Positions 1,919 through 7,115 of a DNA stretch of 7,115 nt are shown piece by piece. Source of the stretch: a virus (lineage: Duplodnaviria; Heunggongvirae; Uroviricota; Caudoviricetes); the IMG/VR virus record IMGVR_UViG_2695420412_000015. One strand, given 5' to 3'. The first letter of the stretch is position 1. Every line of letters begins with the position of its first letter. Below the pieces are notes generated by a model. It did no database searches, was not told where the DNA came from, and saw only the letters and a program-made list of their open reading frames with translations. The translations under genes and the position numbers were made by a program.

Positions 1919-2059
1919 GTGTTTGATTTTAGCAAACTGATTCGGGAGATTCGAGTGATGGCTGAAAAATTATCCACCTGGAAGTTCATTCTTATCTGGC
2001 TGGTGTTTGTGATTATGGCCTCCGGTTATTTCATCGGTCAGATACGACGGGGAGAGTAA
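1919..2059 (+). CDS. Small single-pass membrane protein ORF (46 aa from GTG 1919; 33 aa if ATG 1958 is used), copy A with chimeric 3' end
   Basis: AGGAG at 1910..1914 lies 4 nt before GTG 1919 (in copy B the AGGAG-to-GTG spacing is 5 nt); GGGAG at 1944..1948 precedes ATG 1958. Translation VFDFSKLIREIRVMAEKLSTWKFILIWLVFVIMASGYFIGQIRRGE* has one clear transmembrane segment. The copy at 3131..3268 differs in this segment only by synonymous changes, which argues for purifying selection. The last codons (RRGE*) look like the holin 3' end rather than copy B (RWW*). Confidence 0.45.
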   Translation: MFDFSKLIREIRVMAEKLSTWKFILIWLVFVIMASGYFIGQIRRGE

Positions 2060-2063
2060 AGCG

Positions 2064-2396
2064 ATGAAGAAAAAATACGAACTGGTTGTTAAAGGGATAA
2101 ATAATTACCCGGATAAGATTACTGTTACTGTGGCACTGGAAATTGGTGGGTATCCGTCACTGTTGTTGCCAGATGTGGCGATTAGTCTTGACCGTACTGA
2201 AGGAGCCACGCTGGAGTTTTACGAAGCTGAGGCGAAAAAGCAGGCGAAGCAGTTTTTCATGGATGTTGCTGCCGGGTTATGTGAAGGGGATGGTCCGTTG
2301 CCGGAAAAGCGGCCCATCATTTTAGAGGCGCAGGATGTGTTGATAATCTACAGAGGAAAACTACCGGGAATAATTACTGGTTCTCTGAAGACTTAA
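2064..2396 (+). CDS. DUF1327-like small lysis-region protein, 110 aa (copy B, unextended form)
   Basis: MKKKYELVVKGINNYPDKITVTVALEIGGYPSLLLPDVAISLDRTEGATLEFYEAEAKKQAKQFFMD... is co-linear with residues 1-109 of the 194..1183 ORF (about 14 aa substitutions by eye) and ends ...SLKT* at TAA 2394..2396. Same position relative to the endolysin as in copy A. Family name recalled from memory, unverified. Confidence 0.7.
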   Translation: MKKKYELVVKGINNYPDKITVTVALEIGGYPSLLLPDVAISLDRTEGATLEFYEAEAKKQAKQFFMDVAAGLCEGDGPLPEKRPIILEAQDVLIIYRGKLPGIITGSLKT

Positions 2397-2438
2397 CATA
2401 TCCAGGGATTTGAAATCGATAAACCCTGATAAATATCC

Positions 2439-2972
2439 ATGAACACCAAAATCAAATACGGCCTGTCGGCTGCCGTTCTGGCGCTGATTGCCGCAGGTGC
2501 GCCTGCGCCTGAAATCCTCGACCAGTTTCTGGATGAAAAGGAAGGTAACCACACCACGGCATACCGTGATGGTGCGGGTATCTGGACCATCTGCCGTGGA
2601 GCCACCCGGGTGGATGGTAAGCCTGTCCTCCCGGGCATGAAGTTGTCGAAGGAAAAATGCGACCAGGTTAACGCCATTGAACGTGATAAGGCGCTGGCAT
2701 GGGTGGCGAAAAACATCAGAGTGCCACTGACCGAACCCCAGAAAGCGGGTATTGCGTCATTCTGTCCGTACAACATTGGTCCCGGTAAGTGTTTCCCGTC
2801 TACGTTTTACAGACGAATTAATGCAGGTGATCGAAAAGGTGCCTGCGAAGCGATTCGCTGGTGGATTAAGGACGGTGGCAGAGACTGCCGTATTCGTTCA
2901 AACAACTGTTACGGTCAGGTATCCCGTCGTGACCAGGAGAGCGCGCTGGCGTGCTGGGGAATTGACAGATAA
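2439..2972 (+). CDS. R: SAR endolysin (phage lysozyme), copy B
   Basis: 177 aa, co-linear with copy A and differing at about 11 residues by manual count (e.g. AIMVDGKPVV versus ATRVDGKPVL; KAKCAQ versus KEKCDQ). Intact ORF with the same N-terminal SAR-like segment. Confidence 0.9.
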   Translation: MNTKIKYGLSAAVLALIAAGAPAPEILDQFLDEKEGNHTTAYRDGAGIWTICRGATRVDGKPVLPGMKLSKEKCDQVNAIERDKALAWVAKNIRVPLTEPQKAGIASFCPYNIGPGKCFPSTFYRRINAGDRKGACEAIRWWIKDGGRDCRIRSNNCYGQVSRRDQESALACWGIDR

Positions 2973-3065
2973 GCAGAATATTTTGCTGAAAAATGCGGTT
3001 TGCTCACACGGGCGGATAACACGAAATCCTGCGAACTGGCAAAAACTAAGTGAATAAAAGTAAAA

Positions 3066-3100
3066 CCCCGTTTGTTGGCCGCAAGCGGGGTTTTGTGTTT
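3066..3100 (+). terminator. Rho-independent terminator-like hairpin, copy B
   Basis: Stem CCCCGTTTG (3066..3074), loop TTGGCCG, stem CAAGCGGGG (3082..3090), then TTTTGTGTTT (3091..3100). The stem is identical to copy A; the loop differs by one base. Confidence 0.55.
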
Positions 3101-3130
3101 CCTGACTCCGGAAAAGTCAAAGGAGAAAGT

Positions 3131-3268
3131 GTGTTTGATTTTAGCAAACTGATTCGGGAGATTCGAATGATGGCTGAAAAATTATCCACCTGGAAGTTCA
3201 TCCTTATCTGGCTGGTGTTTGTGATTATGGCTTCCGGTTATTTCATTGGTCAGATACGCTGGTGGTGA
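3131..3268 (+). CDS. Small single-pass membrane protein ORF (45 aa from GTG 3131; 33 aa from ATG 3167), copy B
   Basis: AGGAG at 3121..3125 lies 5 nt before GTG 3131; GGGAG at 3156..3160 lies 6 nt before ATG 3167. Translation ...MMAEKLSTWKFILIWLVFVIMASGYFIGQIRWW*; stop TGA 3266..3268 is immediately followed by the Rz ATG at 3270. The track ORF starting at 3050 would run through the terminator hairpin, so I prefer a downstream start. Confidence 0.45.
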   Translation: MFDFSKLIREIRMMAEKLSTWKFILIWLVFVIMASGYFIGQIRWW

Positions 3269-3269
3269 A

Positions 3270-3737
3270 ATGAACCGCGTACTGTGCGTGGTCATCATTG
3301 CCCTGCTGGTGGCCTGTGGTGCGCTTAGTCTGGGGCTGAATCATTACCGTGATAACGCCATAACCTACAAAGAGCAGCGCGATAAAAAAGTCAGTGAGCT
3401 GGAGCTGGCAAATGCAACCATTACTGATATGCAGGTGCGCCAGCGCGATGTTGCTGCGCTCGATGCAAAATACTCGAGGGAATTAGCCGATGCGAGAGCT
3501 GAAAATGAAACTCTGCGTGCTGATGTTGCCGCTGGTCGTAAGCGCCTGCGGATCAACGCCACCTGCTCCGGTACCGTGCGTGAAGCCACCGGCACCTCCG
3601 GAATGGATAATGCAACCGGCCCCCGACTGGCAGACACCGCTGAACGGGATTATTTCACCCTCAGAGAGCGGTTGATGACAATGCAGAAGCAACTGGAAGG
3701 GGCACAGGACTATATCCGCACTCAGTGCCTGAAATAA
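3270..3737 (+). CDS. Rz: Rz i-spanin (inner-membrane spanin subunit)
   Basis: [40 protein letters not shown]...[31 protein letters not shown]...[35 protein letters not shown] is co-linear with lambda Rz as I recall it ([20 protein letters not shown]...[19 protein letters not shown]). I place the start at ATG 3270 rather than the track's 3246, matching the lambda Rz N-terminus. Confidence 0.9.
   Translation: [155 protein letters not shown]
3490..3675 (+). CDS. Rz1: Rz1 o-spanin (outer-membrane lipoprotein spanin subunit), embedded in the +1 frame of Rz
   Basis: MRELKMKLCVLMLPLVVSACGSTPPAPVPCVKPPAPPEWIMQPAPDWQTPLNGIISPSESG parallels lambda Rz1 (..LPLVVVGC...CVKPPPPPAWIMQPPPDWQTPLNGIISPSERG). 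It has a lipobox (VVSAC) and a proline-rich body. Lying wholly inside Rz in another frame is the classic arrangement. The true start may be the internal Met (MKLCV...). Confidence 0.85.
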   Translation: MRELKMKLCVLMLPLVVSACGSTPPAPVPCVKPPAPPEWIMQPAPDWQTPLNGIISPSESG

Positions 3738-4087
3738 GTTTTGTTGATGCGCCGTATCGTCGCTGTATTCCCTCATTAACAGAGACCGCAGCCCGACAGG
3801 GAGACTCCTCTGCGCGAGTGTGCGGGGATAATCAAAAACGATACACACCGGGGTTTACCGCGTTAACGGAGCGCGGCGTTGTCCCCTCATAGTCGCCTGT
3901 CCGGTGCGATGGTGGAAGAAGCCGGATGTTTATCACTATTAATTGATGACACAGAAATGGATTCATTGAATTTCAGCACGTTTTTGTATTCGTGTTATTG
4001 AACATCTGTTTATTTTACTTTTAACATATTGATAATAAAAAGAGCTGTAAATCTTTAGATGAGTCGATTTTGTCCGGGGAAGTTCAA

Positions 4088-4237
4088 ATGGATTTTATGC
4101 TGACGGTTTCTGGTGTGGTTATCCTGTCCATTGCTTATACTGCAGATAAATATGGCTGCCATTTGTTATCACGTATTGGCGCTTATTGTTCGTTGATGCT
4201 GATTTTCTCGTCGCTTTTTTTTATTTTTTTTGAGTAA
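4088..4237 (+). CDS. Hypothetical 49-aa hydrophobic peptide ORF (not in the supplied track, below its length cutoff)
   Basis: ATG 4088 is preceded by GGGGAAG with a 5-nt spacer. My manual translation is MDFMLTVSGVVILSIAYTADKYGCHLLSRIGAYCSLMLIFSSLFFIFFE*. It is strongly hydrophobic, AT-rich, ends in a T-run, and has atypical codon usage, so it may not be a real gene. Confidence 0.2.
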   Translation: MDFMLTVSGVVILSIAYTADKYGCHLLSRIGAYCSLMLIFSSLFFIFFE

Positions 4238-4369
4238 GTTATATTAATTATAACAAATAATTTTCTGTGTTATTTTTTCAGGCTATCCCGTCAGAGGGGA
4301 AGCCTGTACTGCCGGGGAGCGAATGGAAAACTGATGTGTCCGGTAACTGCGTGTTCTGTGAACACCATG

Positions 4370-4555
4370 TTACTTAATTATGTAATTCATACCCGAACTC
4401 TCTGTTGACAGCCTTCTTCTGCAGGCTTCAATAACCCACGCTGAAAAGTTTCCTGAACCTTTCAGGTCAAGAGCGATGTTAATTTGTTCAATTATCTGGT
4501 TTGGAAATCGGATGTTGCGGGTTGTTGTTCTGCGGGTTCTGTTCTTTGATGACAT
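4370..4555 (-). CDS. Hypothetical small ribbon-helix-helix-like DNA-binding protein (61 aa)
   Basis: Minus-strand ORF MSSKNRTRRTTTRNIRFPNQIIEQINIALDLKGSGNFSAWVIEACRRRLSTESSGMNYIIK. It has a basic N-terminus, then a beta-strand-like IRFP segment, a helix, a GSG turn and a second helix (NFSAWVIEACRRRL), which is the Arc/Mnt/CopG-type layout. Its position between the spanin genes and a Nu1 homologue recalls small ORFs such as ylcI upstream of nohD in E. coli cryptic prophages (from memory, unverified). No strong Shine-Dalgarno sequence seen. Confidence 0.4.
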   Translation of the reverse strand: MSSKNRTRRTTTRNIRFPNQIIEQINIALDLKGSGNFSAWVIEACRRRLSTESSGMNYIIK

Positions 4556-4754
4556 AATGTTGCCCCGTATTCAGTGTTGCTGATTTGTATTATCTGAAGT
4601 TGCTTTTACGCTAATTTGATGCAGATCAATTAATACGATACCTGCGTCATAATTGATTATTTGACGTGGTTTGATGGCGTAGATGCACGTTGTGACATGT
4701 AGATGATAATTATTATCATTTTGCGGGTCCTTTCCGGCGATCCGACAGGTTACG

Positions 4755-4766
4755 GGGCGGCGACCT
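4755..4766. other. cosN: cosN: 12-nt cohesive-end sequence GGGCGGCGACCT (terminase nicking site)
   Basis: 4721..4754 (TTGCGGGTCCTTTCCGGCGATCCGACAGGTTACG) matches the right end of phage lambda DNA as I recall it. 4755..~4799 (GGGCGGCGACCTCGCGGGTTTTCGCTATTTATGAAAATTTTCCGG) matches the lambda left end; the sequence diverges after that. The segment just upstream (about 4700..4754) should contain cosQ. Confidence 0.85.
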
Positions 4767-4799
4767 CGCGGGTTTTCGCTATTTATGAAAATTTTCCGG

Positions 4800-4911
4800 G
4801 ATCCATGTCCGGTTTCTCTTCAAGTTAACTATATGAAAAATATAAAAACAGGTCTTCTGTGAACCGGACATGAACAAAAAACAGACATGTAAACCGGACA
4901 TGACCGGTTTT
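4800..4911. promoter_or_regulatory. cosB: cosB-like region: three copies of an AACCGGACATG element (one inverted, two direct) flanking an AT-rich putative IHF site
   Basis: CATGTCCGGTTT at 4804..4815 is the inverted copy. An AT-rich stretch follows (4816..4860, ...AAGTTAACTATATGAAAAATATAAAAACAGG...). Direct copies are AACCGGACATGA at 4862..4873 and AAACCGGACATGA at 4891..4903, followed by the palindromic arm ACCGGTTT. The order and position between cosN and the Nu1 start parallel lambda R3-I1-R2-R1, but the element sequence differs from lambda R sites. Confidence 0.55.
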
Positions 4912-4949: not shown

Positions 4950-5459
4950 GTGGCTACGCAGACTGAAGTTGCCAGGCATTTAAGTCTGACCGATCGCCAG
5001 CTTCGCAGATTGCAGAAATTGCCGGGTGCCCCGATATCGAATAAGCGAGGGCAACTGGATCTGGATGCCTGGCGCGATTTTTACATATCGTATCTGAGGA
5101 GAAGTAAAAACGATGTGCCTGATGGCGATAGCGAAGACGACTATGAGGAGAAATTGCTTATTGCCAGATGGGAACTGACAGCAGAACAGGCTGTTACACA
5201 GCAGTTAAAAAATGAGGTGTCAAAAGGAAAACTTATTGACACCGGGTTCTGTATTTTTGCCCTCAGTAAGCTGGCAATGGCGTTATCCAGTACGCTTGAT
5301 TCCATCCCTTTATCCATGCAGCGACAGTTTCCTGATTTAACACCGCGCCATCTTGACCATCTGAAAACCCTTATTGCGAAGGGGGCAAATCAGTGTGCGC
5401 GGGCAGGGGATAAATTACCGGATTTACTCGATGAATATATCAGAGCAACAACTGAATAA
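4950..5459 (+). CDS. nu1: Terminase small subunit (lambda Nu1 / E. coli NohA/NohD family)
   Basis: GTG start at 4950 after AGGTGAGGA. The C-terminal half (..TGFCIFALSKLAMALSSTLDSIPLSMQRQFPDLTPRHLDHLKTLIAKG...LPDLLDEYI) is co-linear with lambda Nu1 (..TAFCTFVLSRIAGEIASILDGLPLSVQRRFPELENRHVDFLKRDIIKA...IPGLLSEYI). The N-terminal HTH-like region (EVARHLSLTDRQLRRLQKLPGAP) is diverged. Stop TAA at 5457..5459. Confidence 0.9.
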   Translation: MATQTEVARHLSLTDRQLRRLQKLPGAPISNKRGQLDLDAWRDFYISYLRRSKNDVPDGDSEDDYEEKLLIARWELTAEQAVTQQLKNEVSKGKLIDTGFCIFALSKLAMALSSTLDSIPLSMQRQFPDLTPRHLDHLKTLIAKGANQCARAGDKLPDLLDEYIRATTE

Positions 5460-7115
5460 TATGATGGCTGCCGTTTCGGTTGCGCTGCAGCCTCTGGTCA
5501 GGGTTGTACCAATGACGGCAGTTGAATGGGCTGATCAAAATTATTATCTGCCTAAAGAATCTTCATATGGTGAGGGAGAATGGAAAACGCTGCCATTCCA
5601 GATCGCCATTATGAACTGTATGGGTAACGACCAGGTTCGCACGGTTAACCTGATTAAATCTGCCCGTGTTGGCTATACAAAGATGTTGCTGGGGGTGGTC
5701 GGGTATTTTATTGAGCATAAATCCCGAAACAGTCTGCTTTTTCAGCCCACGGATTCTGCCGCTGAAGATTTTATGAAGTCTCACGTGGAGGCGACGATTC
5801 GGAACGTGCCATGCCTGAAAGACCTTTCCCCATGGCTGGGTCGTAAACATCGTGACAATACTCTCACGCTGAAACGCTTTTCATCGGGCGTCGGTTTCTG
5901 GTGCCTGGGCGGCGCTGCCGCCAAAAACTACCGTGAAAAATCCGTGGACGTGGTCTGCTATGACGAACTTTCCTCGTTCGAGCCGGATGTCGAAAAAGAG
6001 GGGTCGCCAACCCTGCTGGGGGATAAACGTATCGAGGGCTCTGTATGGCCAAAATCCATTCGCGGCTCGACGCCTAAAATCAAAGGCTCCTGCCAGATCG
6101 AAAAAGCCGCTAACGAGTCGGCACATTTCATGCGTTTTTATGTGCCCTGTCCGCACTGTGGGGAGGAGCAGTATCTGAAATTTGGCGATGATGCCTCGCC
6201 TTTCGGTCTTAAGTGGGAGAAGAATAAGCCAGAAAGTGTTTTCTACCTTTGTGAGCATCATGGCTGTGTGATCCATCAGTCTGAGCTTGACCAGAGTAAC
6301 GGGTGGTGGATCTGTGAAAACACGGGCATGTGGACCCGTGACGGCCTGATGTTTTTCAGCGCCCGGGGGGATGAAATTCCGCCGCCGCGCTCCATCACTT
6401 TCCATATCTGGACGGCGTACAGTCCGTTCACCACCTGGGTACAGATTGTCTATGACTGGCTGGATGCACTGAAAGATCCCAACGGTCTGAAAACTTTTGT
6501 TAACACCACGCTGGGCGAGACCTGGGAAGAGGCCGTGGGCGAAAAACTCGATCACCAGGTACTGATGGATAAGGTCGTGCATTACACGGCGGCGGTGCCA
6601 GCCCGGGTGGTTTATCTGACGGCGGGCATTGACTCGCAGCGAAACCGTTTTGAGATGTATGTCTGGGGATGGGCTCCGGGAGAGGAAGCCTTTCTGGTGG
6701 ATAAAATCATCATTATGGGGCGTCCCGATGAGGAAGAGACGCTGTTACGTGTGGATGTGGCGATCAACAAAAAATACCGCCATGCAGACGGAACCGAAAT
6801 GACCATTTCCCGTGTCTGCTGGGACATCGGGGGGATCGATGGCGAAATCGTTTATCAGAGGTCAAAAAAACACGGTGTTTTCCGGGTGCTGCCGGTAAAA
6901 GGCGCATCTGTCTATGGCAAGCCGGTGATCACCATGCCAAAAACCCGCAATCAGCGGGGCGTGTATCTGTGTGAAGTGGGGACAGACACCGCAAAAGAAA
7001 TTCTCTATGCCCGTATGAAAGCCGAGCCCACGCCTGCGGATGAAGCCACGTCGTATGCCATCCGTTTTCCTGATGATCCGGAGATTTTTTCGCAGACAGA
7101 GGCGCAGCAACTGGT
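5431..7115 (+). CDS. A: Terminase large subunit (lambda gpA family), 3'-partial at window edge
   Basis: Not in the supplied track because it has no stop inside the window. ATG 5431 overlaps the Nu1 3' end in the +1 frame, as in lambda. My translation MNISEQQLNNMMAAVSVALQPL...AVEWADQNYYLPKESSYGEGEWKTLPFQIAIMN...FWCLGGAAAKNYREKSVDVVCYDELSSF...GSVWPKSIRGSTPK...CPHCGEEQYLKFGD...FHIWTAYSPFTTWVQIV...FVNTTLGETWEE...YLTAGIDSQ... is co-linear with lambda gpA over the whole ~560 codons. The minus-strand ORFs at 5563..7110 are antisense shadows. Confidence 0.95.
   Translation, partial: MNISEQQLNNMMAAVSVALQPLVRVVPMTAVEWADQNYYLPKESSYGEGEWKTLPFQIAIMNCMGNDQVRTVNLIKSARVGYTKMLLGVVGYFIEHKSRNSLLFQPTDSAAEDFMKSHVEATIRNVPCLKDLSPWLGRKHRDNTLTLKRFSSGVGFWCLGGAAAKNYREKSVDVVCYDELSSFEPDVEKEGSPTLLGDKRIEGSVWPKSIRGSTPKIKGSCQIEKAANESAHFMRFYVPCPHCGEEQYLKFGDDASPFGLKWEKNKPESVFYLCEHHGCVIHQSELDQSNGWWICENTGMWTRDGLMFFSARGDEIPPPRSITFHIWTAYSPFTTWVQIVYDWLDALKDPNGLKTFVNTTLGETWEEAVGEKLDHQVLMDKVVHYTAAVPARVVYLTAGIDSQRNRFEMYVWGWAPGEEAFLVDKIIIMGRPDEEETLLRVDVAINKKYRHADGTEMTISRVCWDIGGIDGEIVYQRSKKHGVFRVLPVKGASVYGKPVITMPKTRNQRGVYLCEVGTDTAKEILYARMKAEPTPADEATSYAIRFPDDPEIFSQTEAQQL

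Follow-up and report, generated by a model that had tools for sequence, protein, structure and literature searches.

The 7,115-nucleotide (nt) stretch of IMG/VR virus record IMGVR_UViG_2695420412_000015 (hereafter, the window) represents a lambdoid prophage oriented along its late operon, and the interval studied here (positions 3738-4754) lies between the spanin gene Rz and the cohesive-end site cos. The left part of this interval contains a structured element with a covarying RNA fold, and this RNA folds on the + strand. The interval as a whole is a mosaic, and we consider it likely that it represents an accessory spacer of the lambdoid late operon, placed between the lysis and the packaging modules, with four separable pieces:

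3748..3927, + strand: structured RNA element of about 180 nt, with nine helices, 45 consensus base pairs (bp) and a tentative 4-bp pseudoknot (RNAalifold on 54 copies)
3940..4290, no strand assigned: AT-rich inserted block of the moron type, GC content 0.319, nearly invariant among copies
4370..4555, - strand: YlcI/YnfO (DUF3950) gene, 61 amino acid residues, convergent with a small open reading frame (ORF) of the AT-rich block and 132 nt apart from it
4421..4754, + strand: homolog of the right end of lambda-like genomes, which spans the left side of cos, the conserved N-terminal part of ylcI and the region upstream of that gene

In a sensitive search, the GC-rich segment that forms the element proved to be the only portion of the interval in common with about 400 phage records, with identities of 76-100%. 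These records include Stx1 and Stx2 (Shiga-toxin) phages, phage 434, lambda-like isolates and Salmonella phage ES18, and nearly all sampled Stx phages carry the element. It starts 11 nt past the Rz stop codon and shows sharp borders (left, TGCGCYGTATCGTCGC; right, GAAGAARCYGGA), beyond which the flanks are unrelated between copies. A first-pass annotation of the window, made from its letters alone, had suggested that small RNAs or peptides could be hidden in the AT-rich DNA of the interval, and had recommended a comparison of homologous intervals. This comparison was the sole route that revealed the element. The suggestion was right in that the interval holds both a structured RNA element and a small peptide gene, but the RNA is located in the GC-rich left part and outside the AT-rich DNA.

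The initial alignment of five copies shows helices that are kept by differing sequences, such as CCGCG/CGCGG, CTCAT/ATGGG, CTGTG/CGCAG and CAGC/GCTG. Further copies were gathered from viral and genome contigs by means of a conserved 22-24-nt pattern and thinned to 54 with a mutual identity below 96%. Standard pairing was found in 98.3% of the cells of the consensus pairs, compared with 37-63% when the 3' partners were slid by 1-3 columns. Changes on both sides were present in 14 of the 45 pairs, against 5.6±1.6 in column shuffles (none of 500 shuffles reached 14), and the number of cells with both-side changes was 51, against 8.6±2.6 in the shuffles. Furthermore, there were 266 G·U cells and 12 A·C cells, and pairing fell from 98.3% on the + strand to 87.6% on the complement. 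The G·U asymmetry and this difference in pairing indicate that the folded strand is the strand of the late transcript. The element thus has two general characteristics of structured RNAs, compensatory or wobble-kept pairs beyond the controls and strand specificity.

Several observations weigh against reading the element as a functional RNA. Stability above that of shuffled sequences, a further general characteristic, is lacking for positions 3748-3930 (z = -0.37), where the minimum free energy (MFE) fold differs from the consensus: in the window sequence, the consensus structure has -43.6 kcal/mol and the MFE structure -64.4 kcal/mol. Single-sequence folding of 3738-3950 also gave z-scores near 0 on both strands. 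Many of the aligned copies are close kin, and some counts scored as compensatory therefore correspond to few evolutionary events. In addition, the copies of lambda and of the K-12 prophage DLP12 have a degenerate central domain and retain the 5' domain and the 3' hairpin, which indicates that not every helix is required everywhere. Finally, the evidence that would assign the element to RNA rather than to DNA consists of the covariation and the G·U asymmetry. The alternative MFE fold was considered as a consensus and not adopted, as its pairing in the alignment (88.1%) is barely higher than that in shuffles (87.2%); one pair (alignment columns 90-151) covaries in the alternative pairing between GGGGAUAAU and GUUGUCCCC. 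The pseudoknot, in which CACC would pair with GGUG of the P9 loop, is tentative and is suggested by a single compensatory event in four sequences.

A covariance model built from the alignment scored the window copy with 214.9 bits, and also found a copy in lambda at 46,868-47,038, between bor and lambdap78 (107.6 bits), and one in DLP12 at about 579,009-579,180, between borD and ybcV (106.4 bits). The lambda reference annotation (NC_001416) shows no structured element at 46,868-47,038. Among complete E. coli genomes, 4145 of 5426 (about 76%) carry the element, in 11,132 places, with a median of 2 and a maximum of 11 per genome, and the majority of these places are unannotated. Plasmid records, possibly phage-plasmids, account for 691 of the 11,132 places. 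One viral contig (L104) shows two copies in the same orientation (5056-5240 and 6006-6190), 950 nt apart, whose 3' domains differ.

The genomic context was analyzed in 220 fetched copies, all of which are situated downstream of the lysis genes and share their orientation. The upstream neighbor is Rz or an ORF of 75 residues in 137 of them, with median gaps of 14 and 20 nt, and the element mostly begins 13-20 nt after their stop codon. The Rz-type neighbors (129 copies) are all oriented as the element. The remaining upstream neighbors are bor, on the opposite strand, or rha. Downstream neighbors are variable and found on either strand: the small ORF or terminase genes or, on the opposite strand, either ylcI or a DUF1398 gene. 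Since no conserved promoter of its own was found and the orientation is shared with Rz, the element is presumed to be part of the pR' late transcript; transcription within it would agree with the late-operon position and the fixed orientation.

Searches for known RNA families were negative. Rfam (4227 families, Rfam 15) over the whole window, with E up to 1, gave two sub-threshold matches, both outside the interval; over 3700-4760, with E up to 10, it gave only eukaryotic microRNA and small nucleolar RNA models, about 30 to 80 bits under their thresholds. The covariance-model search recommended by the first-pass annotation thus returned nothing relevant. ARAGORN found no tRNA or tmRNA. The element does not have the form of an intrinsic terminator: the P9 hairpin is followed by copy-specific sequence (UGUUUAU, CGAUGUG, CACUUAC, UAAAACA), and the terminator scan called nothing in 3738-4350. 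Enterobacterial repetitive intergenic consensus (ERIC) and repetitive extragenic palindromic (REP) repeats, miniature inverted-repeat transposable elements, tRNA-like RNAs and retron RNAs were discarded on the basis of the fixed position and orientation, the lack of ARAGORN or Rfam matches and the fact that the window encodes no reverse transcriptase.

One alternative is that the element acts as DNA, either as a recombination linker between phage modules or as a protein-binding or packaging-related site. Its location at a module junction with unrelated flanks on either side would suit such a function, as would its presence upstream of the terminase genes in both pac-type and cos-type phages, and long invariant stretches such as ATAATCAAAAACGAT fit recognition by a protein. 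However, nine covarying helices, whose pairing is kept through G·U in 266 cells that would be C·A mismatches on the other strand, are unexpected for a duplex site, and the orientation is fixed relative to the late transcript; we regard a DNA function as improbable. The second alternative refers to an ORF which overlaps the element:

3725..3892, + strand: 55-residue ORF over the element, matching phrog_6954 (E 1.4e-16); most likely an annotation artefact

That the element is a small protein-coding gene, as this match and the coding sequences annotated over it in PA2 (gp73) and several other phage records as 'Rz-like spanin' or hypothetical protein would suggest, is scarcely credible, given that codon periodicity is absent from the variable columns of the 54 copies (38/40/33), indels are 1-2 nt long in 61 of 64 cases, 30 of the 54 copies lack an open frame across the element, the start codon is unconserved and most RefSeq genomes have nothing annotated there. 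One copy has a 13-nt deletion in this region.

As to the role of the RNA, its variable neighbors, fixed orientation, location at the boundary between lysis and morphogenesis genes and invariant loops lead us to infer that it is a domain of the late transcript which acts in cis or is processed. In either form it would mark this boundary as an autonomous folded RNA, and its likeliest role would be that of a processing or stability determinant of the long late mRNA, possibly via a bound protein, or that of a platform for proteins. On a tentative basis, and with considerable doubt, we propose that it could be a previously undescribed class of functional structured RNA of lambdoid late operons rather than a passive hairpin, and could for instance bind a protein, act as a processing ribozyme or control the morphogenesis genes as a conformational switch. 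According to this proposal, the conserved loops, the possible pseudoknot and the possible alternative conformer would point to a specific partner or activity.

Cis-acting structured RNAs are known from phage operons: the put antitermination RNA of HK022, the sib/RNase III retroregulation sites of lambda and 3' mRNA stabilizers. The element resembles them in being folded, in its fixed orientation, presumably within a long phage transcript, and in its independence from the adjacent coding sequence; however, it shows no sequence or structure match to them and no terminator or U-tract is consistently attached. Small RNAs (sRNAs) of prophages in pathogenic E. coli (AsxR, AgvB, Pas sRNAs, STnc100, Esr41, DicF) are likewise non-coding and located at conserved late-region positions of lambdoid prophages (PMC4104026; bioRxiv 10.64898/2026.05.13.724894). 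In contrast to the element, which is about 180 nt, multi-helix, downstream of the lysis genes and without its own promoter or terminator, these sRNAs are 50-100 nt, of the Hfq type and found on the upstream side of the lysis genes, close to Q, pR' or the stx slot, and none of their Rfam models matches the window. No name for the element was found in the literature searched; it might be one of the more than 10,000 unnamed structured-RNA candidates listed in a 2023 phage catalogue (PMC10690425), whose tables were not compared.

Lambda and the Shiga-toxin phages are among the best-studied viruses, yet the DNA from lysis to packaging genes is regarded as dispensable cargo space. With a covarying element in this region, the late operon would gain a new player, regulatory or structural. 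Lambda and Shiga-toxin phages have the element in common, it is mostly unannotated or mis-annotated, and its function is directly testable by lambda genetics. Its recognition also corrects a recurrent mis-annotation, the 'Rz-like spanin' and hypothetical ORFs called over it.

The genes on either side of the interval were identified as follows:

3270..3737, + strand: Rz (i-spanin), Pfam Phage_lysis with E 3e-50, PHROG 13 'Rz-like spanin'; left neighbor of the interval
3490-3675, embedded in Rz: Rz1 lipoprotein, ORF with a lipobox
4950-5459: Nu1-like small terminase gene, followed by the large terminase gene

As a whole, the interval recurs with 93-99% identity in hundreds of E. coli prophages, and DNA comparison showed that 456 complete genomes hold at least 80% of it. 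The 56 distinct copies vary at 10-13 columns per 30 nt in 3738-3857 and at no more than 4 per 30 nt in 3918-4217. The first-pass annotation described it as an AT-rich and low-coding region without a bor-like gene. Its ORF count agrees with the ORF list: ORFs on the + strand that overlap the interval encode 55, 40, 55, 36, 35 and 41 residues, none reaching 60, and the - strand has one ORF of 61 residues (4370-4555) inside the interval and one of 121 residues (3483-3848), antisense to Rz, that only clips its left edge. Low-coding is correct only in part: two genes and the structured element fill about half of the interval, and the only ORF which had been counted is a member of a named family, YlcI/YnfO. 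A bor-like gene is indeed absent: a gene of the Bor/Iss type would encode a lipoprotein of about 97 residues on the - strand after Rz, while no Bor-sized ORF exists in 3738-4754, where the largest ORF fully inside has 61 residues, and tblastn with lambda Bor found nothing between Rz and the element in the window. AT-richness applies to part of the interval. GC content is 0.485 in the window, 0.415 in the interval, 0.372 in 3950-4720 and 0.319 in the core (3940-4290), and the lowest-GC 350-nt segment of all 7.1 kb starts at 3931 (GC 0.306, in relation to a mean of 0.482 and a standard deviation of 0.049, about 3.6 standard deviations below); however, the left 200 nt (3738-3939) have a GC content of 0.554 and are not AT-rich. 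T-runs were also reported correctly: of the four runs of at least six in the window, three are found at 4215-4222, 4224-4231 and 4273-4278, and the sole other one at 7085-7090.

The location between Rz and cos corresponds to an accessory or cargo slot, as the first-pass annotation had stated for lambda and lambdoid prophages. The cargo in this position, between Rz and the ylcI/ynfO-cos-nohD block, is bor in lambda, borD-ybcV-ybcW in DLP12 and cspI...ydfO in Qin, so both K-12 prophages carry other genes there. The AT-rich block resembles such lambdoid morons in being an insertion between conserved flanks with deviating base composition, and differs in that its cargo is a single orphan ORF of 46-49 residues, without relatives beyond E. 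coli, and that no promoter and terminator pair of its own was called. The block is missing in relatives where the element abuts ylcI, DUF1398 or terS; the distance from the element to the ylcI stop codon is 33-42 nt in phage ev066 and others, and about 440 nt here. It is also inserted in relation to phage PA2. As in morons, it is therefore extra DNA between otherwise adjacent genes, with a composition unlike that of its surroundings and typical of foreign DNA. The claim of horizontal acquisition is consistent with the behavior of this block (in ev066 the element is directly followed by ylcI), and does not extend to the right third of the interval, which is conserved cos-flank DNA. An ORF of 75 residues (MKKLLVTVKPFQG...) was often found between Rz and the element (47 of the 220 contexts; for example L001:3767-3991, PPyecE_EH1910), and relatives may carry an ORF of this length between Rz and position 3741. 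This ORF defines a second cargo slot, upstream of the element and separate from the downstream slot that holds the AT-rich block. The definition of two slots, before and after the element, helps in reading prophage mosaics and in finding virulence-associated morons.

Three features were located within the AT-rich block:

4088-4237, + strand: small orphan ORF, 49 residues here and 46 in most copies, with two hydrophobic segments
4215..4223, + strand: TTTTTTTTA, a 9-nt insertion that keeps the frame, in the T-run with which the small ORF ends; found only in this window (1 of 56 distinct copies)
4238..4254, no strand assigned: AT-only near-palindrome GTTATATTAATTATAAC with 6-bp arms, directly after the stop codon of the small ORF and followed by U-rich sequence

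The near-palindrome had been noticed in the first-pass annotation one base to the right. It folds into a hairpin on either strand and may be a weak terminator, but was not called by the terminator scan. The same annotation supposed that peptides of this region would be missed by ORF-based annotation, which is not the case for the small ORF, called 'hypothetical protein' by PGAP (WP_000347012/13). Its close relatives were named only from E. coli (10 clusters, word-indexed search); a full HMMER scan of 1.84 billion proteins (representatives) found no credible distant relative, only low-complexity noise, and no family of Pfam, NCBIfam, PHROG or PADLOC matched.

The small ORF probably encodes an orphan membrane peptide, with the membrane location predicted from hydropathy. 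Its product may come from the late transcript, from an own lysogen promoter, or from both. The main alternative is that the AT-rich block is a xenogeneic spacer (for example, H-NS-bound DNA, promoter DNA or a buffer that separates transcription of the late operon from that of ylcI) in which the 49-residue ORF is fortuitous. Four features speak against a fortuitous ORF: a Shine-Dalgarno-like sequence, GGGGAAG, is located 6 nt before its ATG, all four of its polymorphic sites in the 56 distinct copies are synonymous third positions, the private 9-nt insertion preserves the frame, and the first 45 codons are open in the 80 retained viral contigs. Other observations count against a peptide gene and in favor of a spacer. 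The non-coding DNA around the ORF varies as little as the ORF itself, homologs outside E. coli are lacking, and slippage in the T-run alters the C-terminus, with frameshifted alleles in circulation (proteins P0001, P0004 and P0010); non-synonymous alleles exist as well. Furthermore, no promoter or terminator of the small ORF passes the scans: there is no promoter-like site on the + strand upstream of 4088 and no called terminator after 4237, only the weak AT hairpin with its U-rich tail. Taken together, the spacer seems rather unlikely.

It is very improbable that the small ORF and its surroundings are a type I toxin-antitoxin locus, with a toxic membrane peptide under the control of an antisense RNA. 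A hydrophobic peptide of less than 60 residues in an AT-rich prophage setting, with convergent transcription from ylcI, would be compatible with such a locus, and the - strand RNA of 4200-4380 folds better than shuffles (z = -3.69). Nevertheless, none of the Rfam antitoxin RNAs (Sok, Sib, Rdl, IstR, OhsC, OrzO and others) matched with E up to 10, Pfam, NCBIfam, PHROG and PADLOC gave no toxin family, the promoter scan placed no antisense promoter over the small ORF, and two short hydrophobic segments are atypical of these toxins. Two hairpins were observed between the small ORF, which we continue to read as a probable peptide gene, and ylcI: one at 4279-4306 (CAGGCT...AGCCTG), preceded by a T-run, and the other at 4338-4369 (GTAAC...GTTAC), at the ylcI stop codon. 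Neither has a proper U-tract, and the copies of 4200-4380 are too uniform for a covariation test.

The 61-residue protein encoded at 4555-4370 is above the curated cut-offs of its family: 64.7 bits (cut-off 25) for Pfam DUF3950 and 35.1 bits (cut-off 30) for NCBIfam YlcI_YnfO_N (NF041551). Its position and strand, next to cos/terS and opposite to the late genes, are those of ylcI-nohD and ynfO-nohA in K-12, and also those found in 434. It shares with the family the length and the N-terminal 49 residues, which are near-invariant, while the C-terminal tail, which varies across the family with the neighboring cargo, is here particular to this cargo variant. Variable sites in 4448-4547 are mainly at third codon positions, the pattern of a gene under purifying selection. 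The AlphaFold monomer model (mean predicted local distance difference test score of 70) has an extended N-terminus and two helices, 19-32 and 37-55. YlcI is probably a DNA-binding protein or regulator of the ribbon-helix-helix type, as judged from this model and a HicB-like PHROG match (E 0.0098). The fold search argues against certainty in this assignment, as it was not significant: the ribbon-helix-helix proteins AtaR2 and HP0222 were retrieved by Foldseek with E above 1. No PDB sequence matched and PADLOC gave no hit.

Transcription of ylcI would start from the cos side and run against the late transcript, convergent with the small ORF. By analogy with bor of lambda, ylcI is assumed to be expressed from the prophage. 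Promoter and terminator scans gave site numbers at chance level, and none of the sites accounts for the small ORF or ylcI. In K-12, RNA-seq data list the ybcW-ylcI pair as a convergent excludon or overlapping transcription unit (PMC12288877), and the small ORF and ylcI are convergent likewise. An unannotated ylcI-like frame was also observed on the - strand of lambda near cos, at about 48,148-48,303 (NC_001416), open over 52 aligned residues.

The right part of the interval (4421-4754) matches the final 334 nt of the 434, 2G7b and Lambda_* genomes with 92-93% identity, and the position aligned to 4754 is where the records of lambda-like genomes terminate. In 17 of 82 related loci, the homology ends exactly at 4555 and is replaced by an HNH gene and an HK97-type terminase packaging module. 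Two parts of cos were mapped:

4725-4731, + strand: cosQ, GGGTCCT, position transferred from the annotated cosQ of phage 434, which is 23-29 nt away from the end of that genome
4755-4766, + strand: cosN cohesive-end sequence GGGCGGCGACCT, read directly; right boundary of the interval

The cosQ site is required to terminate DNA packaging. As in lambda, the same heptamer is located 23 nt upstream of the nick and is followed by GGGCGGCGACCT, which identifies the site as a lambda-type cos. The difference lies on the cosB side (after 4766, outside the interval), with its CCGGACATG repeats and a Nu1-like protein whose N-terminus falls beyond the Pfam Phage_Nu1 match. Three CCGGACATG copies were observed at 4796-4910, between cosN and the Nu1-like gene, two of them within 16-nt direct repeats with a spacing of 30 nt; these copies are probably the cosB binding sites of the terminase of the window. 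The Phage_Nu1 match is limited to residues 49-150 of the Nu1-like protein.

Upstream of the interval, a strong hairpin, AAAACCCCGCTTGC...CAAACGGGGTTTT, is found after each of two lysozyme genes (1826-1915 on the - strand, repeated at about 3040-3125), with A/T runs on both sides as in a bidirectional terminator; it gave a sub-threshold Rfam match to 'rimP leader' (29.9 bits, E 0.09) that reflects the terminator shape only. A conserved small ORF with one hydrophobic segment (...MAEKLSTWKFILIWLVFVIMASGYFIGQIR...) is located between lysozyme gene and Rz at 1883-2059 and 3050-3268, with likely ATG codons at about 1954 and 3167; it is not annotated in the RefSeq relatives inspected (L002, L003). 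The lysis cassette is in fact partly duplicated in tandem (178-2046 and 2048-3258), each copy with a YdfR/DUF1327 gene, a lysozyme gene and this small ORF. The first YdfR/DUF1327 copy (194-1183) encodes 329 residues, with a C-terminal extension of about 220 residues (phrog_1085), and the second (2064-2396) the usual 110 residues. The two cassette copies are just 92-97% identical, and the arrangement therefore looks like the product of unequal recombination between two prophages that differed, and not like a fresh duplication. A short shared sequence, CGGGGAGA(C/G)TAAAGCG, marks the junction. For the region around it, the best matches among E. coli genomes consist of three non-collinear pieces, which suggests that this cassette arrangement may be rare.

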